Shown here: piece by piece, positions 685-58,133 of the stretch | How the letters are laid out: each line of letters begins with the position of its first letter | Position numbering within the stretch: position 1 is the first letter of the stretch | Source: Candidatus Uhrbacteria bacterium | Lineage (GTDB): Bacteria; Patescibacteriota; Patescibacteriia; UBA9934; GWF2-40-263 | Assembly (NCBI GenBank): GCA_037131775.1 | Contig: JBAXQK010000002.1 | Span: 23,472-87,471, forward strand | Reading direction: 5' to 3' | Length of the DNA: 64,000 bases | Notes under the pieces: generated by a model | Told to the model about the DNA's origin: nothing | The model's input: only the letters and a program-made list of their open reading frames with translations | The model's database searches: none | Translations under genes and position numbers: made by a program

Positions 685-695
685 GGATCTGCTAT

Positions 696-738: not shown

Positions 739-741
739 GGA

Positions 742-1974: not shown

Positions 1975-1975
1975 A

Positions 1976-2650
1976 TTATAAAATTTTTCCGTCCCGGATT
2001 CGAATCACCCGGTCGCTGAATGCGGCGGCCTCTTCCTCGTGGGTGACCATCACCACGGTACGGCCGTCCTTCTTGCACAGGTCCCGGAGGATGTTCAGTA
2101 CCTGCTCGCTCGACTTCGAGTCGAGGTTTCCGGTCGGCTCGTCCGCGAACAAAACCGTCGGATTGTTTACGAGCGCCCTTGCGATTGCCACGCGCTGCTT
2201 CTGGCCTCCCGACAGCTGGGACGGAAGAAAGTCCTCGCGGTCGGACAGTCCGACGTCGGCGAGCACCGCCTTGGCACGGGCAAGACGGCTCGCCGGCTTG
2301 TCCGTCGTGTACAGCAGCGGCAGCATGACATTTTCGACGGCGGTCAGGCGAGGCAGCAGGTGGAACGCCTGGAACACGAACCCGATCTTTTCCAGGCGAA
2401 GCTTCGCGCACTCCACGTCGGAACGCTTCGTCACGTCGATTCCGTCGAACAGGTATGTCCCGGAGGTCGGCCGGTCGAGCAGGCTCACGATGTGCATGAG
2501 GGTCGATTTTCCCGACCCGCTCGGCCCCATGAGCGACACGAACTCACCCGCGTTCACGACCAGGTCGACGCCATGAAGAACGGGCGTCTCCACGTCGCCG
2601 TTCACATATGTCTTCGTGATGCCGCGTAGTTCTACTTTGGGAAGCGGCAT
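1976..2650 (-). CDS. ABC transporter ATP-binding protein (MacB/LolD-like)
   Basis: Walker A GPSGSGKST, ABC signature LSGGQKQRVAIARAL and Walker B LLFADEPTGNLD are present. Confidence 0.9.
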   Translation of the reverse strand: MPLPKVELRGITKTYVNGDVETPVLHGVDLVVNAGEFVSLMGPSGSGKSTLMHIVSLLDRPTSGTYLFDGIDVTKRSDVECAKLRLEKIGFVFQAFHLLPRLTAVENVMLPLLYTTDKPASRLARAKAVLADVGLSDREDFLPSQLSGGQKQRVAIARALVNNPTVLFADEPTGNLDSKSSEQVLNILRDLCKKDGRTVVMVTHEEEAAAFSDRVIRIRDGKIL

Positions 2651-2651
2651 A

Positions 2652-12765: not shown

Positions 12766-12884
12766 GGATACGAAGCAACGAATTTCCTACCAAACTACGA
12801 AACAACAAAACGCTACAAAATACAGTGAATTTGTAGCGTTTTAAAATTCTGTAGTTTGGTAGCGGATTCGTGGATTGGTATCCC
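12766..12884. repeat. family-B long imperfect palindrome (GGATACGAA...CTACCAAACTACGAAAC // GTAGTTTGGTAG...TTGGTATCC)
   Basis: About 118 bp in the ftsA-ftsZ intergenic region. Half-copies occur at 16651 and 59596. Confidence 0.7.
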
Positions 12885-14151: not shown

Positions 14152-14161
14152 AGTGATGAGA

Positions 14162-14530
14162 TTATAGCACAGTCTCGACGAAGTACGGCCAGAAGATGAC
14201 GATTCCCGCAACGAGGGAGACGATCGAGGCAATGAGGACGGCCCCGGCCATGATGTCCTTGATGTCGCGGACGATCGGATGAATGCGAGGCTGGAAGCTG
14301 TCGACGAGCCGTTCAAAAATGGTGTTGACGATCTCCAGCGTGAGGACGGCGCCGATCAGCAGGAGGATAATGAGAAACTGGTTGGTGGAGATTCGATAGA
14401 TCGCCGCGAGGACGATTGCCGCGACCGCGCCGCAGACCTGGATGCGAAACGACTGTTCTGCCTTGAAGACAACGGACACGCCTCGCAGTGCGTGCCGCAC
14501 GCTTGAACACAAATTTTGTATGTGGATCAT
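14162..14530 (-). CDS. dgkA: diacylglycerol/undecaprenol kinase (DgkA family)
   Basis: 122 aa with 3 TM segments. The E..N.IE..VD motif (EIVNTIFERLVD) is present. It overlaps ybeY by 4 nt. Confidence 0.8.
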   Translation of the reverse strand: MIHIQNLCSSVRHALRGVSVVFKAEQSFRIQVCGAVAAIVLAAIYRISTNQFLIILLLIGAVLTLEIVNTIFERLVDSFQPRIHPIVRDIKDIMAGAVLIASIVSLVAGIVIFWPYFVETVL

Positions 14531-14949
14531 ATTCGAGTGTCAACACCGAGTGTTGACAGGATGCGCGTCTGGCGCGGAAACATCTTCTTCGCGTCTTTCG
14601 GCTCGATATGGTCGTATCCGAACGTATGCAGAATACCGTGGACGATCAGGAACACCAGCTCGTCGCGCGTCGAATGCCCCATCTCCTTCGCCTGCCGGAC
14701 GGCCTGCGGATAGCAGAGCAGGATCTCGTTCGACGTCTCAAAAGAAAGCACATCGGTCACGTAGTCGTGCCCGCGCCACTTCTTGTTCAAGGCCCGCATC
14801 TCGCGCTCGCCAACGAACGCGATCGAGAGTTCGACGTCCTTCCGCGGCTTCAGCTCCGCGTCGCAAGCCGCCAGCGCCCTGGCAACCAAAGCGTGCGGCA
14901 GGCACTGGCCCCCTCGCAGCTTCGATTGATTTATCTCGAAGGAAATCAC
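14527..14949 (-). CDS. ybeY: rRNA maturation endoribonuclease YbeY
   Basis: The metal-binding motif HGILHTFGYDH is present. Confidence 0.9.
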   Translation of the reverse strand: MISFEINQSKLRGGQCLPHALVARALAACDAELKPRKDVELSIAFVGEREMRALNKKWRGHDYVTDVLSFETSNEILLCYPQAVRQAKEMGHSTRDELVFLIVHGILHTFGYDHIEPKDAKKMFPRQTRILSTLGVDTRI

Positions 14950-15986
14950 AGCCAGGTCACGCTATTGATCATCATCTTGAACGTCTGGAGATAGTCGACG
15001 GTCGCCTTGGCCGCCGTGGCCATCTTGATCGTCATGACGAAATCGGTCCCAAGGACATAGCCGGTCAACTGGTCCTCGCTGATAAATATCTGGTAACCGT
15101 TCTTCGTGACCGTCTTCGTGACGGCCGCCGTCAGCCCCTGGGCCTTGTACCATGCGGAAAGGTCGGAGACGAGGGCTCCTCCCCCCTTCGCGAGCGCGAT
15201 CGTAACGGTCTCTCCGGTGGTCGACACGATCGTGACCGGGCTGTCATTCGATTCCGACACGGCCGGCTTGACCGACCAGACCGCGGGATAAAACAGGGAG
15301 TAGGACAGATTGCCCGGAAGTTCGCGCGTAGAGACGGTCGGCCCTTGGTATACCTTCACGAGTCCTGCGGCATAAAGCGTTCCCGGGGACGTCCCTGCCG
15401 GGTTGTAGCGGTGGTACACCTCGTTCCCGTCCAGGAATCCGTCGGAGTCCGTGTCCGGAAGCTTCGGGTTCGTTCCATAGATGAGCGTCTCTTCCAGGTC
15501 GGACAGTCCGTCGGAGTCCGTGTCCTTTCCCGGGGCGACCGCCGTCGGGAACGGGCTTTCCGCGGGCTTGGGAGTCTCGACCGGCTTGGGAGTCTCGACG
15601 GGCTTGGGCGTGGGCTTCGGGACGGGGGTCGGCTTCACGACAGCCACCGGGACCTCGACGGGCTTCGCGACCGGCTTCTGCGTCCCGCTCACGATGACAA
15701 TTGCCGCGACGATGAGACCGACGATCAGGATTCCTCCCGCGCCGATCATGATTTTCATCCCCTTCGAGAGTTTCTTTTTCTTCGGCACCCCTGCGACGGC
15801 CGGATTCGCGGCAACCACCGGCGGAGCCGTCACGGGACGAGCCGCCGCTGCCGGAACCGCCATCTTCTTCCCCGTCGCGCCGTGCCGATATTCCTCCGGC
15901 ATCACGAACATCGCCGGTTCCGCGAGGGGAACGGTCGAGGTCAGCGGTTTCTCCAACTGTTGTTGAGGATTCGGCGCGTCAGACAT
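14946..15986 (-). CDS. type-II membrane protein with Pro/Val-rich stalk and TSP3-like Asp-rich repeats (paralog A)
   Basis: A single TM segment is followed by repeats DTDSDGLSDLEE and NPKLPDTDSDGFLDGNEVYHRYNP, then a C-terminal beta domain. Confidence 0.6.
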   Translation of the reverse strand: MSDAPNPQQQLEKPLTSTVPLAEPAMFVMPEEYRHGATGKKMAVPAAAARPVTAPPVVAANPAVAGVPKKKKLSKGMKIMIGAGGILIVGLIVAAIVIVSGTQKPVAKPVEVPVAVVKPTPVPKPTPKPVETPKPVETPKPAESPFPTAVAPGKDTDSDGLSDLEETLIYGTNPKLPDTDSDGFLDGNEVYHRYNPAGTSPGTLYAAGLVKVYQGPTVSTRELPGNLSYSLFYPAVWSVKPAVSESNDSPVTIVSTTGETVTIALAKGGGALVSDLSAWYKAQGLTAAVTKTVTKNGYQIFISEDQLTGYVLGTDFVMTIKMATAAKATVDYLQTFKMMINSVTWL

Positions 15987-15998
15987 ATGAAAGGTTCG

Positions 15999-16640
15999 TT
16001 ACGGGGTGGTGGTCGTTCCAAAAAGTTTTCCAGGGCCGTTCGGATTGTATCCCTTCTTCACCTCGGCGCCGTCGAGATACGTGTCGCCGTCGGTATCCGG
16101 GTTCAGCGGGTTCGTGTGATAGGTGTAAACCTCCTCCTTGTCGAACAGCCCGTCCGCGTCCGTGTCCGCAGAGGTCGGGCTCGTGCCAAGCTTGGCTTCC
16201 TCCGAGTCAGTCAGCCCGTCCTTGTCGCGGTCGACGATATCGGACATCGGCTTCGGCCCGTCCGTCACCACGTCCGGGACAACCGCGGCGTCATTCGAAA
16301 CGACGGGCGCCGGCTTCGTAACGACCGGAGGAGTCACGGCAGCCGGCGGAGTCACGATCGCTGGAGCGGCGACCGTCGACGTATCGGGCTCCACGGGAAC
16401 GGACGATCCCTTTGCCGCGAGCATGAAGTACGCGATGGCCCCCGCCGCGCCGACCACGACCAGGACCGTGGCGACGATAACGATCGGCTTCCACGAAACG
16501 GACCGAGGCGCGAACGGCATCGAATCCGATACGGGCATCGCCGGCGTCTCCGGAAGGTCTTTGGGAACTAGCGCAGACGGAGGGGCGATCGGCTCGACGT
16601 TAGCGAAGATATCCTCGGGGGGTTTAACATTCTCGAACAT
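15999..16640 (-). CDS. type-II membrane protein with TSP3-like Asp-rich repeats (paralog B)
   Basis: TM segment followed by DRDKDGLTDSEE and NPLNPDTDGDTYLDGAEVKKGYNPNGPGKL. Confidence 0.6.
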   Translation of the reverse strand: MFENVKPPEDIFANVEPIAPPSALVPKDLPETPAMPVSDSMPFAPRSVSWKPIVIVATVLVVVGAAGAIAYFMLAAKGSSVPVEPDTSTVAAPAIVTPPAAVTPPVVTKPAPVVSNDAAVVPDVVTDGPKPMSDIVDRDKDGLTDSEEAKLGTSPTSADTDADGLFDKEEVYTYHTNPLNPDTDGDTYLDGAEVKKGYNPNGPGKLFGTTTTP

Positions 16641-16650: not shown

Positions 16651-16688
16651 GGATACGAACCTACGAATTAGCTACGAAACTACGAACC
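16651..16688. repeat. family-B half-copy
   Basis: GGATACGAACCTACGAATTAGCTACGAAACTACGAACC was seen between the TSP3 paralogs B and C. It overlaps the stop of paralog C. Confidence 0.6.
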
Positions 16689-17489
16689 GAGTTTTCCGGC
16701 GCCGTTCGGGTTGTATCCGCCGTCGATCTCCACCTTGTCGGAGTAGCCGTCGCCGTCGGTGTCGGGATTCGTATCTGATGATCCGTATGACCGCTCCTCG
16801 TCCGCCATGAGCCCGTCAAGGTCAACGTCTCCGGTCCCAACAAGATCCGCGCAACGGCTCTGTTCCGTCTCATCGGAGAGCTCCAAGCATTTGCTCGGAT
16901 CCTTTGCCGCCACCGCCGCTTCGAACTGAGCGAGCTTGTCACAGACCGTCTGATCCGTTCCACGTTCCACACAGTTGGCCTCGGTAAGCGGACCGTCGAC
17001 CGAATTCCTGCATCCGTCTTGTTTGGCCGCGTCCTGAACCTTGTCGCAGAAAGAGGGGTCTTTCTGCGAGAGGGCAAGACGAACGTTGATCTGGTCGGAG
17101 CACATCTTCGCACGTTCGACGTCGGAAATCGCCGCGCAGCTCTCCGGATCCTCTCTGTCCTTTGCGACGGTCCAGACACAGGAGTCATGATCGGATCCAG
17201 TCAGCTGTTCGCAGACGGTCGACGCGCCGGTCGCCTTGGCCGCGAGCAACACCTTCTTGTTTCGACACTCCTCTGGGTCCGGTTCCTGAGCGCACCCAGC
17301 CAATGACGACGCAAGTTGCGTCTCAATGCGATCCATGTTCTGTGAAGCAATCTCCACTTTTTGGCGACTGCGCACGAACAGAACGGCCCCGATGATCAGC
17401 GCGACCGCAACTACCGCCGCCCCCGCAACGAGGGCGACGATTTTCCATGGCGGACGCGTCGAATCGGATGTTTGGTCGAAGCCGTTCAT
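16680..17489 (-). CDS. type-II membrane protein with Cys-rich region and TSP3-like repeats (paralog C)
   Basis: TM segment, a 12-Cys extracellular region, and a C-terminal NPDTDGDGYSDKVEIDGGYNPNGAGKL. Confidence 0.6.
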   Translation of the reverse strand: MNGFDQTSDSTRPPWKIVALVAGAAVVAVALIIGAVLFVRSRQKVEIASQNMDRIETQLASSLAGCAQEPDPEECRNKKVLLAAKATGASTVCEQLTGSDHDSCVWTVAKDREDPESCAAISDVERAKMCSDQINVRLALSQKDPSFCDKVQDAAKQDGCRNSVDGPLTEANCVERGTDQTVCDKLAQFEAAVAAKDPSKCLELSDETEQSRCADLVGTGDVDLDGLMADEERSYGSSDTNPDTDGDGYSDKVEIDGGYNPNGAGKLGS

Positions 17490-17493
17490 AGGA

Positions 17494-20400
17494 TTATGGT
17501 GCGGGACAATACGTGAAGTTGATGTTACTGAAGGTTACATATCCGGTTCCAGTAAAGGTCGTGGACATCGGGATGGACATGTCCGACCCGGTGCACTGGA
17601 AATCCGGCGGAAACGGAAGCGTCTTGTCATTGCCGTCCGAAACGTTTCCAGTCGTCGTCACGGACGTCCCGGTCGAAGATTCCGTCGTAAGTCCGACGGT
17701 CACATTGATGATCGAGCTGATAATCGAATCGTACATCCCGGCCACGCCGTCCTCGTCCTGGGCAGAGAACGCGTATGTGCCTGTCGTGCAGTCGTTGATA
17801 TCCGCATACAGATGTCCACACGTTTCGCTGGACATGTGTGCCATATACGATGCGTATACGTCGTCGGTCGTCGCCGTTATCGCGGCCGTGTAGACGCTGA
17901 CGTCACCGCTTCCGCGGACGGCTCCATTCTCATCGTCGGCCGAACAGGTGCTCAGCAGTCCTTTGTCGACCTGTTTTGTACAGCAGTAGTAATTGGACGT
18001 TGTTTCGTCATCGAGGGTGGTCGAGGCATCGTTGCCGCAGCTCGGATGCGTTGTACCATCCTCGCACACTCCGGCGGTGGTAGAGTTCGTACACATCGTA
18101 CTCGTCTTACTGATGTAGGTCTGTCCATCCGACAAAAGAATGATCAGTTTCACGTCAGCGGAGGATGCATCAAGCTCAGTAATCGCCGCCTTCATCCCCT
18201 GATAGATTGGCGGCCCCCAGCCAAGGTCTGACTCAAGCGCGTATCCTTCAACGGTTGCGATGAGATCATTTTCATCCATCGACCCGAGCGCCGCGTCGAT
18301 CGTATACCCATCCCCGCCATAAACGCCGGATCTAACTGCGGAACTTCCAATTCGCATGAGTCCGACTTGCAAATCGCCGGACGAGAGCGAGTCATAGAGC
18401 GTTTGAATGGCAGTAGACTCCGACGCACTGACGATATCCATGCGGCTATATCCCGACGGAGGAGTAGACGTACACGTTCCACCGGTCCCGCACTCAGAAG
18501 AAGTTGTGCAGTCCGTCCCGACGACGGCGGTTCCCGCTCCGTCACAATGATTATTCCCATCGACCCAGTCGCCCATGGTTCCCGTATAATCCGTAATGAA
18601 GTACACGGCCACGCTCGGCGGGGTCACGTTCGAGGTCGTGTCTACGTCGGCCGTGATCTGGGTTCCCACGCTGCATGCCGGGATGTACAGGACGGCGCTG
18701 TCCGGGTTCAAGTCAGAGTCGGACGGGTAGCTGTAGAGGTTGATGGTATCCGACGCCGTTCCGCCCGCCTCGCTGGTCTGGCCGAGGACGGAAACGGTCT
18801 GGTAGCTGAACGGGCAGGAGGTGGAGCAGGTAGAGTCGCAGGTTGGGACGACGCATTCCGAATCCGCCCCGCAGGCGTTCCTGTCCTCCGTCGTGCTCGT
18901 GTGACCGGAAACGACCGTGCAGCGTTCGCCTTGCTTGGATCCTCCATTGCACACCCCAAGCTCGCGACAGGTGAAACCGGAATCGCATCCCGCCGAAGAG
19001 CCTTCCGTTCCTTCATTGACGGAACCGCACGTTCCGCCGAGGTCCGTCGCGCTGGTGCCACCCTCGCCGTCCGCGTTGTCGAAGCAGTAAAACGGAATGT
19101 CCGCCCCGTCGCACAGCTCCGTGCCATTGATCGCGCCGTCGCCGCAGTAGGCGCCCGACTTGGTCTTGTACTGGCAGTTGATGGTGCAGTAGTGGCACAT
19201 CCCCTCGTAGACGGCCGTACAGTCGTCGCCGTTGAGCGATCCGTCGTCGCAGGATTCCACCCCGGAATAAACGAGCTCGTCGCCGCAGACGTTCGCCTTG
19301 CAGTCGTTGGTGCAGGCGTCGGTGTTGTCGGTGTTACCGTCGTCGCAGACCTCGGTGCCGTCGACCGTGCCGTTGCCGCAATAGTCGGCGCTGACGCATG
19401 CGGTCCAGGTTCCCCAGGTGCAGGCGGACGTCGAGCAGGTTTGGGAACGGGCGAGGTCGTAGACGACCGTTCCGCAAGAACCGTTGCCGTCCGCGAGGTT
19501 AATGGCGTCGCAGGACGTTCCGTCGACCTTCAGGCCGGTCGAACTGTCGCAGATGCTACCGGAGTCAATGTCGGTGATCGAGTCGGCGTTTCCATCCGTC
19601 GCGCACACCGTGCTCGATCCGCACGACGCTCCGCCGTCGCCGCAGGAAGAACCGTCGGTGCAGTCCGCGTTCGTCGTGCATTCCGTTGCGTCCGCGCACA
19701 GTGCCCCGGACCATTTCTGATAGCCGCCGTCGCACTGCTCGGACCCATTCACCTCCCCGTCACCGCAGCTCGGGCCGGGGCTCTTGCAGTCGTAGGAGCA
19801 CGTTCCGGTCGGGCTGGTGGCGTACTGTCCGTTCGAAACCGCGCAATGGTTGAGCCGTGCCCAGCTCGGGGTCGTATCATACATGACCGCCGTGAAGTTC
19901 GCCGAAACGCCGCAGTCGCACTGCTCGCCGCCGGCAAGGTAACCGTCGCCGCAGGAAAAGGCGGAAGTGAGGGTGCAGTCATCGCCGCAGTGGCCGTAGG
20001 TCCCGTTAAGAGACCCATCGTCGCAGGTCTCGGTCGCGCCGTCCACGACGCCGTTGCCGCAGGAGTACGGCGTACAGACGCCGCCCGCGGCGACCGCGGT
20101 CGTCTCGTCCTGGAACGCGGAGCAGTCGGATAGGCACGTTGCAAGCATCGTTCCTGCCACGCCGTCAGAATCCGTACAGTCGACGGTCGTCGTGTCCCCG
20201 ATCTCGCACGCCTCGTATCCCTCGGCGGACGGATCTGTTTCCTTCGTATTCACTACCCCGTCGCCACAGATCGACGACGTTCCAAGGGTCACGCCGTAGC
20301 AGAATGCGGCCGGGTCCGTAGAAGAGACGAAGTTCGTCGGCGAGGCCGTGCCGGACGGGTGGTACTCCGCGGTCACCGTGCCAAGCGTGGACGGATTAAG

Positions 20401-23400
20401 CTCCTTCGCCCAAGTTCCCGCATCGAACTCAAGCTCCGTCGACAGCTCGAAGGACGTGCCGCCGACGCTTCGGTAACCGTAGACATGGGACTCGTCGGGA
20501 CAGGTGAAGGTGGCCGCGACCGAGTTCCAGCAGGTGGCGGACTCGTAGTTCTCGCCGTCGCAATTCATGAACTCGTTCACCGGGTCGGTGGGAAGCGACG
20601 TGCCGAGCGCGTTGCCAAGCCCCGCCGTCCACGACGGCCAGGTGCTTGTGGAGTACGAGCTGACAAAGGTGCCGTCCGCGAGCTTCGGAACGGAAGGCTC
20701 GCACGTTTCGGTTCCCGGACACTCGTCGTCCGCCGTACAGGTCTGGTTCGTGGTCACCGAGCAGAGGCCGTTCGCGGCGCCGTAGCCGTCGAGTTCGCCC
20801 GCGATCACGACGACGTCCTCCAGGCGGCGCATGTCGCGCGTGAGCTTGGCCTTGTCGGCGTCGCAAATTTGGCCGGAGGCGCAGTCGCCGTCCCAGACGC
20901 ACGGAATGAGGTCGCCCGTGGTCACGTCCGTCGGATAGCTTCCGTCCGTGCTCGACTGGCAGAGGTTGATGTCCGTGACGACGTCGTCATTGGCGTTGAA
21001 CGACCAGTTCGCCAGGATCTGCGCGAAAATTTCCTGCGAGGAAGCCTCCGCGTTCTCCGTATAGGAGATGGCGTACACGTTCGGGTAGATGGTCCCGGAA
21101 TTGGTGACGTTCGTGGCCGCGACGTACGTGGTGTTGCCGTCCGTGATCGCCTCGTAACCGTCTACCGTCGTGCTCGACGGGGATCCTCCGGTGAATCCCT
21201 GCGCGACATACCAGGCGGACGGGGTGAGGTACGAGGAATTCGGAAGCACACGGACGCCGATGGCGTCGGAAGTTCCCTCCACCTTGAAGATCAGGTCCTG
21301 GATGATGTCGGACGTATAGGATTCGACCGCGATTGGCGTCTCAAGCTCGGGAAGATCGTCGGTTGTGTCCTTCGCCACGCCGGCATCCTGGCAGTAGAAG
21401 AAGCTGAAATTTGAGTCGGCATCGAGATACAGGCCGTTCGAATTCTCGACGGTCGGGACGTTGTCGCAGACGTTTACGACGACCTTCAGGGTTCCGCTTA
21501 CCCCTCCGCTCGTTTCGCCGAAGGTGTTGGTCGCGCTGAACGCCGCGGTTGCCACGACGGATTCCTGGCCCGTCTTGTCGGAAGCGGTCACGGTGGATGC
21601 GGCGTCCGTCGAACTCGCCGACGAAACGATGTTTTCCGTATCCGCGTCAATGACGGTCGAGTCCCACGTCCAGCTCCAGCCGTAGCTCGCCGTCGGCTGA
21701 ATTTCCTCCTCGCGCCCGCCACGGACGGTGTTTGGAATCGACACGAACGCGTGCTGCTCGCCGGAAGCCGTGAACGATCCGACGCTTGGGTCGACGATGT
21801 CGCTCGCGGGAGTCACGCCCGTGTCCTCCACGGTCACGGAATCAAGACCGCAAATTTCCGTACCCGTCTGAAAGGTTACCGCGTATTTACCGTCCGGCGC
21901 CCCATTCGCGTCTACGCCAACGGCATGGGCGGAAAGAACGCCGTCGTTCAGGCCGTCGACCGCGTCGGTCAGGTCGGCGTCCTCCACCACGACAAGGGTG
22001 TAGTAGGAATTGGCCTCCAGAACGTCCGTAATGTTGAGCGAGACGCGCGAGCCGCCGAACTCGTTCGCCGTCAGCGAGTACGTCACGGGAGTCAGGCAGT
22101 AGGCCGTCGTATCCGCGGCCTGCGCGGTTCCACCGAACATGCCCGTGACGGAACGCACGACCCAATTCCAAGCGCGCGCGATCCACGAACGGCTCGCCGT
22201 GTCGCCGTACGCAAGCAGGCTTGCCTGGAGATAGCCGGACGGACAGTCGGCAATGTCGATCGCGTCGCCCGTCGACGTCGTCAGGGCGAGGTACAGGTTC
22301 TGGTGGCCTTCGCCGTAATCGAATACGCCCGTGTTCGGTCCCGCCGTATCGTCCCACGACATCAGCGAATTCGAGTCCATCACGTCCGAGAAGTCCACGT
22401 AGATCGCCGCGTTCAGGCACACGTTCGTCTCCCCGATTCCCTGGGAAACGGCCTCGACGGTCGGGCGCTCGAAGCAGCAGGAGGATGTCCCGCAGCCGTA
22501 CGCGTCGTCGCCGCACTGCGCATCGTTCTCACAGGAACAGGTCAGCGTAAGCGTTCCGCTTCCCTCCACGCCGCTCGTCGTTTCCGTTGCCGTAATCGAC
22601 GACTCCGCCGTGTGCGTGGTCGCGTCCACGTCCAAGACCGCCTCTGGATTCACGTAGGAGACGCCCCAATATCCAAAGGCGGTATCCCCGGACGGATCCG
22701 TTGCCGCGTCGCACTCCTCGGCACCCGTGTCAATGACAGCCCCGTTATACTCGTTCGTCCCCGTACGATGCGTCGTACCGTCGCCGCAGTAGCTCGACGT
22801 GCCCAATGACGATCCCTCGTCCACGCAGGATGAGGAACACCCGTCTCCGTTCGTGGTATTGCCATCGTCACAATCCTCGGCGCGAGGGCTCCAGGCGCCG
22901 GTTACGCCGCGGTAATCAATGCGTCCGTCGCCGCAGCACGGCGAAACGACAGGGAGACAGGCATCGGTGGCGCTTCCGCAGTATGTCGACGCGTCGGCCC
23001 CGATTCCCGGACAGTCGCTGGTGGGATTGTCGCGACAGGCGAACGCGCAGACGTTTGCCCCCTCAAACAGACAGATCGAAGAACATCCGTCTCCGCTGGC
23101 AACGTTGCCATCATCGCAGTCCTCACCGGAATCGATGTTGCTGTTTCCGCAGATTGAATTGTATCCGGAACGAGCCACGGTTCCCTCGTTCAGACAGTCA
23201 GAAGAGCATCCCGCGGTGCCGTCGCAATCCTCGCCTCCGTCGCTCGCCGACTGGTCGACAGTCGATCCGTCGCAGGAGGTGCCGGCCTTTCGCGCTCCGT
23301 TATTCAGACAGACGGAAGAGCATCCGTCGGAGTTGTCCGTGTTCGAGTCGTCACACTCCTCTCCGGTTCCGACCGCGCCGTCGCCGCACACGCTCGGGGA

Positions 23401-26400
23401 GCGGTAGTCCGCCGAAGCTCCCTCGTGCAGACAGGTGGTCGTGGAACACCCTTCTCCCCCGTCGCAATCCTCTCCTGGCTCCACCAGGCCGTTTCCGCAG
23501 AAATAGTCGCTTGTGGTCGCCTCCGATCCCGTGTTCAGGCAGTTCGAAGAACATCCGGTCTGAAGAACGGAAGTGATGCGAAGCGGGTCGGACGCGCTGT
23601 TCAGCATGGTCGCGACGTCGCCAAGGGAGGGGCCGGTCGCGTCGACGGCAGTCCACGCGTCCCAGCCGTAGCTCAGCGGGTCAAGCTCCTGGCCGTTCAC
23701 GGAGCAGCTGTCCCGGGCGCCGAACGGAATGGCCTGCCAAAGCGCCTCCTCGCCGATATGCGTTGCGGACGAAGATTTCGGGTCGGTCTCAATCCGATCG
23801 ACCGCGCACGGCTCGTCGGAATCCTTGGTCTTGAATTTCCAAGAAAAGTCGTTCGAGAACTCAGAATACCCGTTGTCCTCGGAAGGATAGTTGCTTCCCG
23901 ACTCCGACAGGGCCACGCCGGAGAGCGATTCGACGTCTCCGGAAATCACGACGCGGTACCAGGTGTTCTTGGTAAAGGGCTCCGAGTGCGTGAAGGTGAC
24001 GGACCTCGAGTCGGCGGAAAGGTCATACGAGACCACGTTGTCCCAGAGCGTCATCTCGCCCGAGTCGGTCGAGCAGAGCGAATCCTGGCAAGAGTAGATC
24101 GTGACGGTGCTGTCGGAAAAATTTTTCGATCCCAAAGCTGTCTCGTCCGCCATGACCGTGTTGAAGTCGGCGGTAATCCCTCCGTTCAAACACACCGAAT
24201 CGCAGCTCGGCGTCCAGCTGGTGACCTCCGGGTCGGTGAAGTTGATCGTAAGCTGTCCGGCGTCGCTCGGCTCGTCGCCCGTCGGGTTCACGGCCTGCGC
24301 GGTGATGTCTACCGGGGATCCGCTGGTGGTTTCGGCGATGGCGGTGGCGAGGGTGGCGCAGGAGCCGGTCGCGGAGGTCGTCGGTTCTACCGACGCAAGC
24401 TGCGACTGCGAGGAGTCCCACGTCCAGCCGTAATTCGTGCAATCCAACGCGACGCAGAAGTCATTCTGCGACAGCGCCAGTGCCGAATACGATTGGGTCT
24501 GCCCAGCCTCCGTTATCGTGTGCGCGGACGGACTGACGACGACGGATCCGATGTTACACGGCTCGGTCGTGGCGGCGGTCGTAAACGTCCAGGAATAGTC
24601 GTTCGCCATGAAGATTCCGTCCTCCGACGTAATTCCCGCGGCGTCGAGGGTCACGGTATACGTGGCGCTCGGCAGGAAGTCGCCTCCCGTCGGACTCCAG
24701 CTGAACGTATATCCGCCCGGCGTTTCGCCGTCCGCCATCACTCCCGCGATGTCCGCGCCGTCCGGATCCGTGACGTGGAGGTACGGGGCAAGGTCATCCC
24801 ATTTCATCATCGGCATGTCGAACGTCGCCGTGACGGCGGCGTTCACGCAGATGTTCTTCGACTCGCTCCAATTGTTCCACGGTGACGGGGACGTAACCAC
24901 GCCCTCGCTGCAGTCGACGACCACCTTCGGCGTCGCGGGAATCGTGGTGGTCGAGAACATCCAGGAGTAATGCGACTCCTGGGGCTCATCCGCGCAGATG
25001 GCCGCGCATTGACCGTTCGAGCAGCAGCTCGTTCCCTCTACGTCGCAGAAACCGTCGCCGTCGGCCAGACAGCTTCCAACCTTGAAATTCAGCTCGTTCG
25101 ATCGATACCCATTCGCGTCGGTCACGTACACGGGTCCGGTTTCGGCCGAGGCGGGCACGGTTGCCGTGACGGAAGAGAGCGACGAGTCCCAGCTCAGGAC
25201 GGACGCGCTTTCGGAAGACGAGAACGTCACGGACGCGGATCCCGTGTGCCTTCCGAGGTTGTCGCCCGCGATGTCGACGTTCGTGGTGGTCACGGGCCCC
25301 GAGACAGGATCAAGATTACAGATGCCCGGGCCCGGAGTGTCGTCGAGAACGGTAAAGTCCGTCGCCTCCGACGAGGCCGATCCCGTCTCGACGGTAAGCG
25401 AGTACGTCGCACCGAGCCCGATCGCCGAGCCGTCCGTGAACGTCGCGGGAACCTTCACGATGATTTCCGTATCGCCCCACGTGTCGGATCCGCAGGCCTC
25501 CGGAAAATCCGTATCGCCCCACGCGACGCTTCCGCTGGTGTCCTGCGCGGAAAAATGGACCGTGCCGGCCGTCGAGCCGAATCCGGTTCCGTTGATGGTC
25601 ACGTACTGCCCGATCGGCCCCCACGTGTCCTGGTCGTCGCACGTGTCTCCCGGATTGACCGCGGAACAGTCCGCATCGGCCGAGCAGCGGGTTCCCATCG
25701 CCTTGCATGCGGTCCAGCCCGAAACGACGGACGCGATGACCGGAGTGGTTCCTTCGGACGAGTCGACGACGGTGAATGACACCTTGTTCGATCCCTGGCG
25801 CAGCGAAACGCAGGATCCGTCCGTTCCGCAGTCGGAGTCCGTCTCGCAGAATGCGTCGGAACCGGAGCAGCGCATGGTTGCGCACGATTCGCCTGATGTC
25901 GTGTCACAGTCCGCGTCCGTCGCGCATGTGACCTGTGGCGTCACGGCCCCCTGGGTCGTCGCGCAAACGTAATCCCCCACCCAAACCTGAGTGTCATAAT
26001 CGCGAGCGTTCAGGAGCGGAACCTGGACGGATAGCGCGGCGGAGGCCCAGCTGTAGTAATCCGATGCCTCGTAGTTTCCAAAGTAGACCGTCGAGGTCCC
26101 TTGGCTCGATTCGCTCGATGAGGTGAAATTATTTCCCGAGAGTCCGACCGTCGAGTGACCGATTCCGGACGTCGGATCCGGCGGACACAGACCCGGACGC
26201 ACCACGGAGTTCACGTCAAAGTCACTGACGGTAGCCCCGTAGTCGTCGTTGGTGGCGTCGACGTACGCGTCGGGATGGGTCGCGTCGGTTCCGGTCGTGA
26301 CGCGAATCGGGCCGTCCTTCATGGAACCGGAAACCTGGACGATAATCTGCGTGTCCGTCCAGGTGGAACCGGTCTCGCACTGGTACTCGGACGCGGTCAC

Positions 26401-27882
26401 GGGGTTCGAGTACGTACCGTTCGTGTCGACGGCGCCAAGGAACTGCACGGTTCCCGGCGTCGATCCAAAACCGCTTCCAATGATGGAGATGATGTTTCCT
26501 TCCGTTCCATCGCCAGGCGAAACAGAGGTGATTTCCGGAACGCTCTCGCAAACGCCATCGACGACAAGTCCCGTCTCGGGATCAATTTCTCCGGAGCAGT
26601 ACCCGCTCGAGCAGTCGGCATTGGACGTGCACGGCGACCCGTCGCACGCGCCGCACTCGCTCGTTCCGCCGCAGTCGCCAGGCGGATCCGCCTCGCCATT
26701 GTTTGCAACGCCGTCGTTGCAGGAAGCGGGATAGACCTCAATGCTTACCCCGGAAGACGTGCTGGCGTGTCCGGCACAGTCCGTTCCCCTTGCGCGAATG
26801 GTATGGCTTCCCGTCGCGTAATCCGAAGAGACATACCACTCCGATCCGTCCGCGGTCGAGAAAAAATTTTCCGACGAAAGGGATCCGGCGGTCGAGTCCG
26901 TCGAGAGCGCCGCGTCGTAGATCGAATCCCCGTTGTCGATCGTAAAGGCAAGGCTCGAGACGCCCGTGTCGTCGACCGTGTACGCCTGCAGCGGTCGGAT
27001 CTCGTTCGTATAGACGGCCGATCCTTCTTCCGGGGCCGAAATTTCCATCGTGGTCGGGCCTTCCGTGTCCACGGCCGTCCCGGTCGTGAAGTCGAACGAG
27101 CACGGGTATGTCGTGTCGCACTTGTACGCCAAATCCGTCGAGCTCTTCAACGTTGTCGTACTCAGCTCAATCGTATAATCCGCGCCCGCGTCATAGCAAT
27201 GCTCGGTCGGAAATCCATCGGCGGAACAGTCCTGCGTCGGGGTGAACGTGGCCACCGTTCCGGCAACGGCGAACGTTCCCGGGACGTCCGTTCCAGACTG
27301 CTGTACGCGGATCCCACCATTGTTAATGGATTCGAGGCTGGGACTTTTACTGAAGGTAAACTGCAGGTTTACGTTTTTAATCGCGTACGCGCACTCGAGG
27401 TTGACGTCCGTCAAGACGAATTGACTCGACGTGCCTCCCCCGTCGCCGTATCCCCCGCCGTTCCCGCCGCTGCCCGACGACGTGCTCGTCCCGTTCAGTG
27501 CGCCCATCAGCTGGCCGAGGATAAACTGGACGATGGCGAATGCGGAAAGAATGATGACGAGACCGACGATCGCCGACGAGAACAGTTTCTTCGCGCTCTT
27601 GATCTTGTCGTCGTTCCCTCCCGACGTCATGTAGCGGAACCCCCCGACGAGAATCAGGACGACGGCGATGATGCCGAGGATCGAGATGACCGTTCGAATG
27701 AGCCTGGCGATGGTGATCGTGAGCGTCTCGCCCGTCGCAAGACCCGCGGTTTCCGCGAAGGAGCTCAGTCCCGAGGTCGGGTCCACGACCTGCGCGAACG
27801 CATGCGGGGCAATCGCAAGAGCTCCGACCGTTACGAAGACGGCAAAGAGGATCGAGAGCAGGCTCTTGCGGGAAAATATCAT
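17494..27882 (-). CDS. giant secreted/surface protein (3462 aa) with an N-terminal pilin-like module, IPT/TIG and Ig-like domains, Cys-rich repeats and a C-terminal vWA domain
   Basis: A 10.4 kb stop-free ORF. It has an N-terminal signal peptide plus a VirB2/TrbC-like two-helix module, then a Gly-rich linker. Further domains are IPT/TIG (ITSVSPGDG...GSGFG), many C-x-C-DDGN-x-NGDGCS-x-C repeats, and a C-terminal vWA domain (KLIILLSDGQ). Confidence 0.85.
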   Translation of the reverse strand: MIFSRKSLLSILFAVFVTVGALAIAPHAFAQVVDPTSGLSSFAETAGLATGETLTITIARLIRTVISILGIIAVVLILVGGFRYMTSGGNDDKIKSAKKLFSSAIVGLVIILSAFAIVQFILGQLMGALNGTSTSSGSGGNGGGYGDGGGTSSQFVLTDVNLECAYAIKNVNLQFTFSKSPSLESINNGGIRVQQSGTDVPGTFAVAGTVATFTPTQDCSADGFPTEHCYDAGADYTIELSTTTLKSSTDLAYKCDTTYPCSFDFTTGTAVDTEGPTTMEISAPEEGSAVYTNEIRPLQAYTVDDTGVSSLAFTIDNGDSIYDAALSTDSTAGSLSSENFFSTADGSEWYVSSDYATGSHTIRARGTDCAGHASTSSGVSIEVYPASCNDGVANNGEADPPGDCGGTSECGACDGSPCTSNADCSSGYCSGEIDPETGLVVDGVCESVPEITSVSPGDGTEGNIISIIGSGFGSTPGTVQFLGAVDTNGTYSNPVTASEYQCETGSTWTDTQIIVQVSGSMKDGPIRVTTGTDATHPDAYVDATNDDYGATVSDFDVNSVVRPGLCPPDPTSGIGHSTVGLSGNNFTSSSESSQGTSTVYFGNYEASDYYSWASAALSVQVPLLNARDYDTQVWVGDYVCATTQGAVTPQVTCATDADCDTTSGESCATMRCSGSDAFCETDSDCGTDGSCVSLRQGSNKVSFTVVDSSEGTTPVIASVVSGWTACKAMGTRCSADADCSAVNPGDTCDDQDTWGPIGQYVTINGTGFGSTAGTVHFSAQDTSGSVAWGDTDFPEACGSDTWGDTEIIVKVPATFTDGSAIGLGATYSLTVETGSASSEATDFTVLDDTPGPGICNLDPVSGPVTTTNVDIAGDNLGRHTGSASVTFSSSESASVLSWDSSLSSVTATVPASAETGPVYVTDANGYRSNELNFKVGSCLADGDGFCDVEGTSCCSNGQCAAICADEPQESHYSWMFSTTTIPATPKVVVDCSEGVVTSPSPWNNWSESKNICVNAAVTATFDMPMMKWDDLAPYLHVTDPDGADIAGVMADGETPGGYTFSWSPTGGDFLPSATYTVTLDAAGITSEDGIFMANDYSWTFTTAATTEPCNIGSVVVSPSAHTITEAGQTQSYSALALSQNDFCVALDCTNYGWTWDSSQSQLASVEPTTSATGSCATLATAIAETTSGSPVDITAQAVNPTGDEPSDAGQLTINFTDPEVTSWTPSCDSVCLNGGITADFNTVMADETALGSKNFSDSTVTIYSCQDSLCSTDSGEMTLWDNVVSYDLSADSRSVTFTHSEPFTKNTWYRVVISGDVESLSGVALSESGSNYPSEDNGYSEFSNDFSWKFKTKDSDEPCAVDRIETDPKSSSATHIGEEALWQAIPFGARDSCSVNGQELDPLSYGWDAWTAVDATGPSLGDVATMLNSASDPLRITSVLQTGCSSNCLNTGSEATTSDYFCGNGLVEPGEDCDGGEGCSTTTCLHEGASADYRSPSVCGDGAVGTGEECDDSNTDNSDGCSSVCLNNGARKAGTSCDGSTVDQSASDGGEDCDGTAGCSSDCLNEGTVARSGYNSICGNSNIDSGEDCDDGNVASGDGCSSICLFEGANVCAFACRDNPTSDCPGIGADASTYCGSATDACLPVVSPCCGDGRIDYRGVTGAWSPRAEDCDDGNTTNGDGCSSSCVDEGSSLGTSSYCGDGTTHRTGTNEYNGAVIDTGAEECDAATDPSGDTAFGYWGVSYVNPEAVLDVDATTHTAESSITATETTSGVEGSGTLTLTCSCENDAQCGDDAYGCGTSSCCFERPTVEAVSQGIGETNVCLNAAIYVDFSDVMDSNSLMSWDDTAGPNTGVFDYGEGHQNLYLALTTSTGDAIDIADCPSGYLQASLLAYGDTASRSWIARAWNWVVRSVTGMFGGTAQAADTTAYCLTPVTYSLTANEFGGSRVSLNITDVLEANSYYTLVVVEDADLTDAVDGLNDGVLSAHAVGVDANGAPDGKYAVTFQTGTEICGLDSVTVEDTGVTPASDIVDPSVGSFTASGEQHAFVSIPNTVRGGREEEIQPTASYGWSWTWDSTVIDADTENIVSSASSTDAASTVTASDKTGQESVVATAAFSATNTFGETSGGVSGTLKVVVNVCDNVPTVENSNGLYLDADSNFSFFYCQDAGVAKDTTDDLPELETPIAVESYTSDIIQDLIFKVEGTSDAIGVRVLPNSSYLTPSAWYVAQGFTGGSPSSTTVDGYEAITDGNTTYVAATNVTNSGTIYPNVYAISYTENAEASSQEIFAQILANWSFNANDDVVTDINLCQSSTDGSYPTDVTTGDLIPCVWDGDCASGQICDADKAKLTRDMRRLEDVVVIAGELDGYGAANGLCSVTTNQTCTADDECPGTETCEPSVPKLADGTFVSSYSTSTWPSWTAGLGNALGTSLPTDPVNEFMNCDGENYESATCWNSVAATFTCPDESHVYGYRSVGGTSFELSTELEFDAGTWAKELNPSTLGTVTAEYHPSGTASPTNFVSSTDPAAFCYGVTLGTSSICGDGVVNTKETDPSAEGYEACEIGDTTTVDCTDSDGVAGTMLATCLSDCSAFQDETTAVAAGGVCTPYSCGNGVVDGATETCDDGSLNGTYGHCGDDCTLTSAFSCGDGYLAGGEQCDCGVSANFTAVMYDTTPSWARLNHCAVSNGQYATSPTGTCSYDCKSPGPSCGDGEVNGSEQCDGGYQKWSGALCADATECTTNADCTDGSSCGDGGASCGSSTVCATDGNADSITDIDSGSICDSSTGLKVDGTSCDAINLADGNGSCGTVVYDLARSQTCSTSACTWGTWTACVSADYCGNGTVDGTEVCDDGNTDNTDACTNDCKANVCGDELVYSGVESCDDGSLNGDDCTAVYEGMCHYCTINCQYKTKSGAYCGDGAINGTELCDGADIPFYCFDNADGEGGTSATDLGGTCGSVNEGTEGSSAGCDSGFTCRELGVCNGGSKQGERCTVVSGHTSTTEDRNACGADSECVVPTCDSTCSTSCPFSYQTVSVLGQTSEAGGTASDTINLYSYPSDSDLNPDSAVLYIPACSVGTQITADVDTTSNVTPPSVAVYFITDYTGTMGDWVDGNNHCDGAGTAVVGTDCTTSSECGTGGTCTSTPPSGYSRMDIVSASESTAIQTLYDSLSSGDLQVGLMRIGSSAVRSGVYGGDGYTIDAALGSMDENDLIATVEGYALESDLGWGPPIYQGMKAAITELDASSADVKLIILLSDGQTYISKTSTMCTNSTTAGVCEDGTTHPSCGNDASTTLDDETTSNYYCCTKQVDKGLLSTCSADDENGAVRGSGDVSVYTAAITATTDDVYASYMAHMSSETCGHLYADINDCTTGTYAFSAQDEDGVAGMYDSIISSIINVTVGLTTESSTGTSVTTTGNVSDGNDKTLPFPPDFQCTGSDMSIPMSTTFTGTGYVTFSNINFTYCPAP

Positions 27883-27888: not shown

Positions 27889-29793
27889 CTAATTGGAAGA
27901 TTCTGGATTTGAGTCTGGAAGTTCCACGGTCGCCGGAGTCGTAAGCGTCGTATCAAGATTTGTCGTGTGGCAGGCCCTTTCGGATGGAAAGCCATTGCAG
28001 CAATACCTGGCCGTCGTCGTGCTCGTTCCGCACATCCCCGTTCCGGCCGCGTTCGGACCGTCCACGGGATACGCGCAGATTTGGTACGCGGACTTCACGT
28101 CACGCGTAATGACCGGGTCGTAGTCCCATCCGTTGTCCTCGTTGCTGACAAGACCCGGATGCGCGATCTCCACGGTCGTGTTGATCGTCTCGTCGTCGAC
28201 GACCAGGTCCGTCTTGCTCGTCGTAAACCAGAACTCATACCACGGGTCTGCCCACAGCGAGACGTTTGTCGTATTGAGCGTCGAGGATTTCATCGGAACG
28301 GAGAACGTCGCGGTTACGTTCGCCGACGGCGATGACAGCCCCTCGAGGATGCCCGGATGCATCTCGGTAATGGTCGGGACGGTGTCGTTTATCTCGTCGT
28401 TGGTCTGGAATCCCCAGACGTAGTTATCGTCGTCGGGACCCGTCCCCTCGTCATCGCCGTTTCCGTCGAGCGAGTTCGCGGACGCGTCCTCCAGGCCGTT
28501 TGCCGGCACGAAGATCGGATCGGCCTGCGGCGGCTCGTCGCCGACGCTCGCCGCCTTGGCCGTGACCTCGATCGCGTTCGTGCTCGCGCTGCCGCCCGGA
28601 GCCGGAAGGCAGTAGATGGTGTCGCCGCACGGATCGACGCCGCACGCCTCGGTCGGCGTGAACTCGATCGTCTTGTACGCGTTGGAAATTGAGAACGTCC
28701 CGTCCACGTATCCGCTCGCCGCGGTCGAGGAACCGACGGTGATGTTGCTGAACGTCTGCGTCGGGTTCGGATTTGACTCCGTCGGCGCCACGTACGTCCC
28801 CGTTCCGGCCACCGGGTCCATCGCCTCGTCGAACGTGATGGAAACGGTGATGTTTCGCGCATCGGTGGCGGAGGCACGCGGGATGACGGACACGACCTTC
28901 GGAGGAGTGAGGTCGACCTCCGTGGAAACCTCGAACGTCCACTCGTACCCATCCTGATTCGACGCGGTGAACGCGGCCGTTTTGTCCGCCTTCTTGATGC
29001 TGTTCGTCAGTTTGACGGTATAGTTCGTGTCGTCCGTCGAGCTGCCAAGGAGATCGACCGGGTCGAAGACGAAGATGGTGTGATCCGCGTTCATGGTCAC
29101 GGAAACGGCGCTTGCCCCCAGCTTCAGCGTATCCACGCTCGCCTCGTCCGCGGTCTTGTAGATCAGAACGTTCGCGGAATTCAGATCGGTGGAAGTCGGG
29201 CTCAGGTCGTAGCCGGAGATGATCGAGGCCGGATCGATCGGCTCCTTGAACGTCACCATGATGCGCGTGTTGCGCGGAATGCCGATCGCGTTGCGCTCCG
29301 GATAGTGCGACTCGATGATGCCCGCGCCGAGCGATCCGGAAAGCGGCTCGCTGTACCGGTCGGCGACGGACGTGCTTCCCGTCGCACCGCCCCAGTTGTC
29401 CAGCAGGCTGTTCAGGATGTAACTCGCGATCGTGAACGAAAAGATACAGAGGATCATTCCGATCACTCCGTTCTTGATCATGTCCTTCGCCTTCTTCAGC
29501 TTGGTGTCGTCGCCCTGCGCCGTCATGTAGATCCATCCGGCATAGAGGACGACGATCGTGAAGATGATCCCGAGCGTTCCGAGGAAGACGCGGATGACCT
29601 TCGCGATGATGATCGGCAGGCTGTTGGTGGACGCGCCGGCAGCCGCGGCCGACGTGGCGAGCTGCGTCGCCGCGCTCTGGACGGACTGCGCGAGCGCTGG
29701 GTGCGCGGCGGCAATAACGCAAACGGCGAGCACGCCAAAGGCGGCTCCGGCGGCGAGGCGGCTGCGCATAGTGTTTGGGAGAAAACGCATCAT
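27889..29793 (-). CDS. secreted protein (634 aa) with an N-terminal pilin-like two-helix module followed by SbsA/Big-type Ig-like domains
   Basis: The signal peptide ends AAHPALAQ. It is followed by helix-loop(GDDTKLKKAKD)-helix and Ig-like repeats (PPKVVSVIPRASATDARNITVSITFDEAMDP). Confidence 0.7.
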   Translation of the reverse strand: MMRFLPNTMRSRLAAGAAFGVLAVCVIAAAHPALAQSVQSAATQLATSAAAAGASTNSLPIIIAKVIRVFLGTLGIIFTIVVLYAGWIYMTAQGDDTKLKKAKDMIKNGVIGMILCIFSFTIASYILNSLLDNWGGATGSTSVADRYSEPLSGSLGAGIIESHYPERNAIGIPRNTRIMVTFKEPIDPASIISGYDLSPTSTDLNSANVLIYKTADEASVDTLKLGASAVSVTMNADHTIFVFDPVDLLGSSTDDTNYTVKLTNSIKKADKTAAFTASNQDGYEWTFEVSTEVDLTPPKVVSVIPRASATDARNITVSITFDEAMDPVAGTGTYVAPTESNPNPTQTFSNITVGSSTAASGYVDGTFSISNAYKTIEFTPTEACGVDPCGDTIYCLPAPGGSASTNAIEVTAKAASVGDEPPQADPIFVPANGLEDASANSLDGNGDDEGTGPDDDNYVWGFQTNDEINDTVPTITEMHPGILEGLSSPSANVTATFSVPMKSSTLNTTNVSLWADPWYEFWFTTSKTDLVVDDETINTTVEIAHPGLVSNEDNGWDYDPVITRDVKSAYQICAYPVDGPNAAGTGMCGTSTTTARYCCNGFPSERACHTTNLDTTLTTPATVELPDSNPESSN

Positions 29794-58128: not shown

Positions 58129-58133
58129 ATGTT

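Follow-up and report, generated by a model that had tools for sequence, protein, structure and literature searches.

The stretch of DNA analysed here, 64,000 nucleotides of Candidatus Uhrbacteria bacterium (contig JBAXQK010000002.1; hereafter the window), carries on its minus strand, at positions 17494-27882, a gene of about 10.4 kb with 3462 codons plus a stop, referred to below as the giant gene. The window has a GC content of 62%, which gives about 0.03 stops per codon in a random frame, and because 3462 codons would stay open by chance with a probability of about e^-100 (our own arithmetic), the open reading frame (ORF) is not attributable to chance. Its GC content at codon positions 1, 2 and 3 is 0.53, 0.55 and 0.78, the third-position bias being that of the flanking housekeeping genes. 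Comparison with a syntenic scaffold of the European Nucleotide Archive (ENA), called L001 below, whose DNA shares about 94% identity with the window, gives for residues 1-2915 (2,907 codons) a synonymous divergence (dS) of 0.235, a nonsynonymous divergence (dN) of 0.023 and a dN/dS of 0.097. Strong purifying selection acts on the gene in its frame, and the ORF is a real, constrained and conserved gene. The first-pass annotation, a reading of the sequence alone, had already pointed to the 10.4 kb stop-free frame and to a Thr/Ser/Gly/Asp/Cys bias of its product, and both observations hold: Thr (12%), Ser (12%), Gly (10.9%) and Asp (9.1%) make up 44% of the residues, Cys another 4.9% (170 residues), and 471 Asp and Glu stand against 97 Lys and Arg. 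An exact look-up of the protein sequence returned no record.

The same annotation had named collapsed repeats as an observation that would speak against the gene. Tandem Repeats Finder (TRF) and a repeat finder detected neither tandem repeats nor long direct repeats in its DNA, so that it does not encode a repeat-expansion protein and repeat collapse is no concern. More generally, an assembly artefact or a pseudogene, in which a chimeric join or collapsed repeats would have made a false long frame, is considered extremely improbable. Two relatives do break at one place, since a 96%-identical contig (L002) ends at residue ~2907-2930 and L001 has a gap of 100 N from residue ~2918. However, other samples provide over 25 independent contigs that are collinear through the break point and the whole gene, and since the distant orthologs all run through it as well, the join in the window is corroborated by many independent assemblies. 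Besides, the L001 gap preserves the frame, because the 337 nt that are missing and the 100 N that replace them are both 1 mod 3, and a dN/dS of 0.1 in a gene without repeats also argues against an artefact. The breaks in L001 and L002 probably reflect strain heterogeneity that starts just downstream. An apparent 79-aa deletion in L001 was discarded as an artefact of the 100-N scaffold gap.

Table 1. Positions in the window of the giant gene, its predicted domains and the associated features
Feature	Residues of giant protein	Window position	Strand	Basis
Giant gene	1-3462	17494..27882	-	codon-position GC; dN/dS 0.097 vs L001; collinear orthologs
Putative signal peptide, cleavage-type site between AFA and Q	1-30	27793..27882	-	hydropathy scan; cleavage site predicted from sequence
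VirB2/TrbC-like T4SS_pilin module, two hydrophobic helices, charged loop TSGGNDDKIKSAKK	53-127	27502..27726	-	PF18895
Gly/Ser linker, then Big_5-like and Big_7-like Ig domains	153-400	26683..27426	-	borderline scores; conserved in orthologs
Four IPT/TIG domains with Cys-rich knots between them	449-934	25081..26538	-	PF01833
Big_5 (SbsA-type) Ig-like domains	997-1326	23905..24894	-	38.9 and 36.9 bits, cut-off 23.6
Cys-rich repeat block 1 (DUF4215/TIGR02232)	1462-1725	22708..23499	-	profile matches; regular expression
Big_5-like, beta-rich region	1780-2124	21511..22545	-	Big_5 29.4 bits at residue ~1806; rest without match
Central conserved domain, best-conserved part of the ectodomain	2125-2535	20278..21510	-	ortholog conservation
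Cys-rich repeat block 2 (DUF4215-type) and Cys knots	2539-3023	18814..20268	-	many invariant Cys
'preVWA', N-terminal half of terminal beta domain	3025-3085	18628..18810	-	local family hidden Markov model (HMM)
vWA domain, divergent allele (DYTGT...LSDG), two Cys-rich insertions	3086-3385	17728..18627	-	leave-out HMM
'Cend', C-terminal half of terminal beta domain, ends FTYCPAP	3386-3462	17497..17727	-	ortholog comparison
Divergent (apparently exchanged) block of ~2 kb: vWA, Cend and whole p269		16680..18627	-	blastn breakpoints; dS
p634, T4SS_pilin N-terminus and Big_5 domains		27889..29793	-	stop 6 nt before giant ATG
p269, signal-anchored, Cys-rich, TSP3-like C-terminus		16680..17489	-	starts 4 nt after giant stop
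p213, membrane-anchored TSP3-repeat protein		15999..16640	-	TSP3_bac 46.3 bits; syntenic
p346, membrane-anchored TSP3-repeat protein		14946..15986	-	profile; syntenic
AATTCGTAGNTTCGTATCC site		16651-16669	-
AATTCGTAGNTTCGTATCC site		12766-12784	-
AATTCGTAGNTTCGTATCC site		12865-12883	+
AATTCGTAGNTTCGTATCC site		59638-59656	+

Predicted membrane anchor and stalk

According to a hydropathy scan, the giant protein has hydrophobic segments only at residues 6-30, ~58-84 and ~99-127, all within the first 130 residues, the second and third being connected by the loop TSGGNDDKIKSAKK. Residues 53-121 match the T4SS_pilin family PF18895 with 35.6 bits when the whole protein is searched and 38.5 bits when the segment is searched (cut-off 26.6), and the family is matched in all 13 orthologs scanned, whereas the NCBIfam model NF045849 scores 27.2, below its cut-off of 40. 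The module is among the best-conserved stretches of the protein, with the signature residues IARLIRT...GG..YMT.GG...AK. The giant protein is therefore assigned to PF18895 by its profile match and by its topology of a signal peptide followed by two helices, although with 3462 residues it departs from the small-subunit size of 100-150 aa. The 3,330 residues beyond position 130 are acidic and Cys-rich, and the hairpin layout of VirB2/TrbC would place them outside the cell.

This predicted ectodomain starts with borderline Ig-like matches: a weaker Big_5 at residues 171-267, a Big_7 at residues 278-364 that scores 24.0 against a cut-off of 24.1, and borderline Big_7/Big_13 matches over residues 278-383. 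Four TIG domains (PF01833) follow at residues ~449-534, 572-639, 753-844 and 855-934, each with 24.9-29.0 bits (cut-off 20.9) and the family being matched in 11 of the 13 orthologs. Big_5 (PF13205), which we take to be the 'SbsA Ig-like' domain of InterPro, reaches 74.8 bits over the whole protein (E=1e-20) and is above its cut-off at residues ~997-1102, 1216-1326 and from ~1806 onwards. The two Cys-rich blocks are matched by DUF4215 (PF13948) with 31.2-44.2 bits (cut-off 27) and, in four stretches, by TIGR02232 (myxo_disulf_rpt) with 65.4 bits (cut-off 20.8), while the regular expression CG[DN]G...ExC[DE] finds ten units at residues 1462-1600 and 2539-2925. For the central domain, neither Pfam nor the sequences of the Protein Data Bank (PDB) gave a match; an AlphaFold2 (AF2) model built with 10 sequences has a predicted local distance difference test score (pLDDT) of 46, with about 100 residues moderately confident, and the best Foldseek match of this model in the PDB is PsbP/Mog1/SciW-like at E~0.02, none reaching 0.001. 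An ortholog, P0085, carries a CBM_4_9-type insertion in this central domain. Taken together, these matches substantiate what had been recognised from the sequence at first sight, namely a VirB2-like pilin N-terminus, at least three IPT/TIG-like segments (four were found), SbsA-like Ig segments (Big_5 at 38.9, 36.9 and 29.4 bits) and Myxococcus-type Cys-rich repeats.

The vWA head and the apparently exchanged block

The C-terminal part contains the motifs VYFITDYTGTM and KLIILLSDGQ, on which the first-pass annotation had based a C-terminal von Willebrand factor A (vWA) domain. The last 460 residues of the window protein give no match in Pfam or among PDB sequences. However, a profile made from 30 orthologous domains, with the window and its close relative left out, matches residues 3086-3385 over its full length with 164.8 bits (E=1.5e-52). 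Among 13 orthologs, 7 match Pfam VWA (best 7.9e-10) and 6 match VWA_2; in a smaller set, 3 of 5 match one or the other, and the best values over the two sets are 7.9e-10 and 3.5e-8. In addition, an alignment of the C-termini of these five orthologs (A1) matches in the PDB the vWA domain of PilB (7b7p, E=3.3e-5), starting at the strand with DxSxS and ending at that with LLTDG, and the match of a family vWA profile of this type to Mfa5 is weak (E=0.32). The leave-out match and the Pfam matches of the orthologs make the window domain a vWA by transitive homology, and residues 3086-3385 are assigned as such. The family consensus, VDIVFVTDLSGSM ... GTPT ... KIVVLLSDG ... FYSAAIT, has a metal ion-dependent adhesion site (MIDAS) of canonical form (DLSGSM/GTPT/LLSDG), whereas the window allele has DYTGT (DxTxT) in place of DxSxS, has lost the Thr (GWGPPIY), keeps LSDG and carries two Cys-rich insertions. 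It is because of this atypical MIDAS and these insertions that Pfam misses it.

In four orthologs (L020, L021, L023 and L024) the vWA domain is absent and the two halves that flank it, corresponding to window residues 3025-3085 and 3386-3462, are directly joined, which identifies the vWA as an insertion within a terminal beta domain. The earlier claim therefore stands as to the domain itself but not as to its position at the extreme end of the protein. Across the giant family the vWA is the least conserved region, whereas the extreme C-terminus is conserved with 77-82% identity. Five loci (L011, L012, L014, L017 and L019) were seen to have an extra extension of 320-430 aa, made of TSP3 (thrombospondin type 3) and Cys-rich sequence, after the terminal beta domain.

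The comparison between the window and L001 sets this region apart. Synonymous divergence is 0.9-1.7 inside a block that covers the vWA, Cend and the whole of the downstream gene p269, compared to 0.05-0.24 in the flanks. More precisely, the vWA shows a dS of 1.7 and a dN of 0.64, with 36% protein identity, the last 77 residues of the giant protein a dS of 1.56 and a dN of 0.13, and p269 a dS of 0.93 overall and up to 1.37, whereas p213, p346, FtsZ and HtrA lie at the background level of 0.05-0.22. The raised synonymous divergence indicates that this block of about 2 kb (window ~16,680-18,630) has another history than its flanks, which points to recombinational allele exchange and not just to fast evolution in place. 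The L001 vWA is 54% identical to that of P0004, a 62%-identical ortholog, against 36% to the window vWA, whose best match anywhere is 45%. The alternative that the variable region is the target of a diversity-generating retroelement was ruled out, given the lack of a second copy of this region in the window, the indels and the saturated dS; no reverse transcriptase was found among the 38 window genes scanned with Pfam.

Orthologs and gene neighbourhood

A scan of the Genome Taxonomy Database (GTDB) yielded four loci: the already mentioned L002, a contig of 'Candidatus Uhrbacteria bacterium LJ_bin-4636', and L003, L004 and L005, which hold full-length orthologs of 3366-3489 aa with 37-39% identity. 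When the pilin module served as the query of an exhaustive phmmer search, 39,882 relatives were returned. The top 150 of these include 18 cluster representatives of 3223-4105 aa in which the module occurs once, at the N-terminus; for at least 12 of these 18, the alignment to the window protein runs over the full length, with 33-56% identity, and the collinear end-to-end orthologs span 33-62% overall. In the metagenomes of the Joint Genome Institute (JGI), a scan with the central-domain profile found 38 loci, many of them with complete genes of 3300-3725 aa, whereas a scan with window-specific peptides found no relatives, and protein homology searches with the C-terminus, a C-terminal profile and a central profile returned fragments only.

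The gene order around the giant gene is Der-LCP-SPase-HisRS-YqeY-p634-GIANT-p269-p213-p346-YbeY-DAGK-FtsA-FtsZ-NrdR-HtrA-PK. It is completely kept in L004, whose giant protein is only 37% identical, and its downstream part is kept in more than 20 metagenome contigs. In all, over 30 independent contigs have a collinear ortholog of the giant gene in this neighbourhood. Such strict synteny indicates vertical inheritance as a core gene rather than as part of an island, and the giant gene thereby appears as a syntenic core gene of Candidatus Uhrbacteria. L004 (CAYMBX010000012.1) and L005 (CAYJVQ010000004.1) are titled 'uncultured Gammaproteobacteria' and yet show the Uhrbacteria-type gene order, complete in the former and, in the latter, over the upstream part up to the contig end; this label is probably wrong.

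The combination of a VirB2-like N-terminus with so large a surface protein had been thought uncommon in the first-pass annotation. This is still valid for the literature, where our search met no account of a giant ectodomain joined to a VirB2-type module, the proteins being deposited under generic names, but not within Candidatus Uhrbacteria, as seen from the 18 giants in the top 150 relatives and the 38 metagenome loci. Judging from these counts, the fusion is not rare in this group and is simply deposited as 'VWA domain-containing protein [Candidatus Uhrbacteria bacterium]', 'hypothetical protein' or 'cysteine-rich repeat protein'. Apparently free-standing small pilins, which share 45-55% identity with the N-terminus, were also considered and rejected: at least one of them, P0041, is a giant ortholog truncated by the end of its contig, and this set cannot therefore be counted as free pilins. 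Among the other relatives of the pilin module, many (P0007, P0002, P0008 and others) have 2-17 tandem VirB2-like modules per polypeptide, the sequence of P0007 (1775 aa, 17 modules) reading continuously; these multi-module proteins could be either true poly-pilins or arrays of pilin genes that were fused because genes were called with a wrong genetic code.

Directly next to the giant gene, p634 carries a pilin module that is 32% identical to that of the giant protein (E=5e-17), and it lies upstream in every related locus with that flank compared (L002-L005 and L044). On the other side, p269 is found downstream in nearly all loci that have Cend and enough flank, and is absent in distant members without Cend, a correlation that is confounded by phylogeny. 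Like p213 and p346, p269 is signal-anchored and has TSP3-type Ca-binding motifs. VirB4, VirB6 or other genes of a type IV secretion system (T4SS) were not found among the 38 larger window genes in the Pfam scan, about 10 smaller ORFs lying outside that scan.

Several further observations concern the surroundings of the giant gene. The genome, which is high in GC, contains long antisense ORFs: a 709-aa ORF on the plus strand (14442-16571), opposite YbeY, p346 and p213, was rejected as an antisense artefact, and in L001 (971-9381, minus strand) the ENA gene caller placed antisense ORFs inside the giant gene, of whose true frame it called no more than the final 323 codons (P0001), a case in which an automated gene caller can be seen to miss it. 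The FtsA ORF (12889-14316, minus strand) has 475 aa in the window and seems shorter in L001 (14387-15454), which is probably an assembly artefact because of a second 100-N gap in that scaffold (14464-14563). The intergenic motif AATTCGTAGNTTCGTATCC, part of a TTCGTAG-rich element of about 36 nt, has four matches against 0.07 expected, located in the p269/p213 gap, twice and inverted in the ftsA/ftsZ gap, and at the edge of a low-GC island by secY; the motif may act as a promoter or an operator. This island (58130-59610, 1.5 kb, 35-39% GC against a background of 62%) lies between adk and secY, carries minus-strand ORFs of 184, 113, 96 and 85 aa without Pfam match, the 184-aa ORF having transmembrane segments, and has the appearance of foreign DNA inserted into the secY-adk-map block, which is conserved.

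Functional interpretation of the giant protein

Regarding its N-terminus, the giant protein is comparable to the VirB2/TrbC-like pilins of Patescibacteria (PF18895; PMC12102498), with which it has in common a signal peptide and two hydrophobic helices joined by a charged loop, the family model being passed over the N-terminal 130 residues, and the tandem of giant gene and p634 resembles the reported pilin arrays. However, these pilins are small and mostly encoded near virB4, whereas the modules of the giant protein and p634 are followed by 3,330 and 500 aa, respectively, and lie at a housekeeping locus; the fused form is unmentioned in that T4SS paper (PMC12102498). The best PDB sequence match of the family vWA profile, PilB of Streptococcus sanguinis (7b7p; PMC8179133), likewise combines a pilin module with a vWA/MIDAS adhesion module, but it is a type IV pilin of 426 aa with a class III signal peptide, a single alpha1 helix and the vWA on a short loop, whereas the giant protein has a VirB2-type hairpin and a stalk of about 2,950 aa between anchor and vWA. 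Since the class III motif G[FMILV][TS]L[IVL]E is absent from the first 60 residues, the N-terminus being a classical Sec signal peptide, the giant protein does not belong to the PilB-type family of modular pilins.

Proteins of the RrgA/GBS104 type are pilus tip adhesins with a vWA domain, and in such tip adhesins, for example Mfa5 of Porphyromonas, the vWA sits at the distal end of the fibre, nested in a beta-sandwich domain, as is predicted for the giant protein. There, however, the fibre is a polymer of pilins, whereas the giant protein is a single polypeptide without sortase LPXTG motif: LPx[TSA]G occurs nowhere in it, and it also lacks a C-terminal hydrophobic segment. Finally, SiiE, the RTX adhesins of the LapA/MpIBP type and the 7651-aa adhesin of Mobiluncus share with the giant protein a very large size, an acidic character, a stalk of Ig-like domains and a binding region at the distal end, but they contain many near-identical tandem repeats and rely on export by a type I secretion system or on sortase anchoring. 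The giant protein differs from them by its lack of DNA-level repeats, its N-terminal membrane hairpin and its extensive disulfide-rich DUF4215 modules, and the RTX motif GGxGxD was not found in it.

From its domain content, topology and conservation, we consider it fairly probable that the giant protein is a membrane-anchored, vertically inherited cell-surface adhesin or tether of Candidatus Uhrbacteria, a member of the candidate phyla radiation (CPR)/Patescibacteria. It would be exported via Sec with a cleavable signal peptide, and the VirB2/TrbC-type hairpin, visible as a domain match and in the topology, would hold it in the cytoplasmic membrane. The stalk, about 3,330 acidic and disulfide-rich residues arranged as some 30 modules in constant order and without repetition (Ig-like domains, four TIG, Big_5, two DUF4215 blocks and the conserved central domain), might, if extended, reach a length of the order of 100 nm by a rough estimate. 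By analogy with vWA domains in pilus-tip and other adhesins, the distal beta domain with its inserted MIDAS-type vWA could be the ligand-binding head, and its ligand would lie on a host cell or on a surface. This head seems to be the evolvable part of the protein, being the least conserved, missing in some orthologs, and apparently exchanged between 94%-identical strains together with the C-terminal end and p269; such an exchange may tune specificity, which would fit adaptation to different host or surface ligands. The giant gene is probably co-transcribed with p634 and the three membrane-anchored TSP3-repeat proteins, and giant, p634, p269, p213 and p346 would constitute, next to the ftsA/ftsZ cluster, a conserved module of surface proteins.

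Several points weigh against an adhesin or tether. The pilin module is conserved beyond the needs of an anchor, which may reflect specific contacts of the module with a T4SS or with other pilins, while the strict end-to-end conservation and the housekeeping location would also fit a structural component of the envelope. In addition, the degenerate MIDAS and the Pfam miss make metal-dependent binding by the window vWA allele uncertain, and the segment-wise structure prediction proposed in the first-pass annotation, although carried out, gave for the C-terminus a model (from 2 sequences) that is unusable at a pLDDT of 38.5, and for the central domain the above-mentioned 46.

The alternative in which the giant protein is a modular VirB2-class pilin, its N-terminal module being extracted by the CPR T4SS into a pilus, probably as a tip or rare subunit and together with p634, appears unlikely to us, while drawing on several observations. 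In VirB2/F-type pili both pilin termini face outward, and such termini would display a C-terminal extension. The PF18895 cut-off is passed, the signature residues of the module are among the most conserved of the protein, and the adjacent p634 carries the same module. Besides, VirB2-like pilins are widespread in CPR and essential in Southlakia (PMC12102498; PMC10633639), yet the Patescibacteria T4SS survey in which pilins were found states that 'no adhesins such as PrgB were detected' (PMC12102498); VirB4 is encoded in some, although not all, draft Uhrbacteria genomes (PMC12102498 Table S1), and the closest solved relative of the vWA is precisely that of a modular type IV pilin (PMC8179133). 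In its furthest form, which we find equally doubtful, the giant protein and p634 would be the first modular VirB2-class pilin, with a T4SS-loaded tip displaying a stalk of ~100 nm and an exchangeable vWA cassette for host specificity. Nevertheless, the lack of T4SS genes among the 38 larger window genes and the syntenic housekeeping locus, independent of any T4SS cluster, argue in the other direction, a 3,330-aa extension on a 75-aa core would sterically allow a terminal position only, and nothing speaks for polymerisation.

Less likely still, the giant protein could be a structural envelope component, either S-layer-associated or a surface-fibre scaffold for cell shape or division, with the vWA serving protein-protein assembly. 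The architecture kept end to end with many invariant Cys, the strong purifying selection, the SbsA-type Ig domains and the adjacency to ftsA/ftsZ, invariant across species whose giant proteins are only ~40% identical, would suit such a role. However, the profile scan of the protein found no domain for S-layer anchoring, whether S-layer homology (SLH) or another, the elongated modular build with one membrane anchor at the N-terminus resembles that of fibrillar adhesins, and a distal vWA that is dispensable in some orthologs and exchanged between near-identical strains is rather typical of a variable external partner. A conserved body whose divergent C-terminal domain is swapped as one block with a divergent downstream gene also recalls polymorphic toxin-like systems, in which the giant protein would deliver a variable C-terminal effector and p269 would be its cognate immunity protein. 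This is very improbable, considering that the variable domain is a vWA instead of a toxin fold, that the extreme C-terminus is conserved, that p269 is a signal-anchored, Cys-rich, TSP3-type extracellular protein and not a cytoplasmic immunity protein, and that no toxin, Rhs, PT-HINT or similar Pfam matches were found in the giant protein.

CPR/Patescibacteria are thought to live attached to hosts and, to our knowledge, the molecules of contact are essentially not known outside the Saccharibacteria. In this context, the giant gene takes up ~10 kb of a genome of probably ~1 Mb, judged from Uhrbacteria assemblies of 0.9-1.2 Mb (PMC12102498 Table S1). It appears to couple a T4SS-pilin-type module to an adhesion head, and the strain-level exchange hits exactly this head and the neighbouring surface-protein gene. 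If the modular-pilin interpretation were true, it would supply the adhesin so far reported missing from the CPR T4SS. As an adhesin or tether, the giant protein would be a concrete candidate behind the recognition of hosts and the variation of host range, and typing of its vWA alleles could provide a bioinformatic marker linking Uhrbacteria strains to their hosts in metagenomes.

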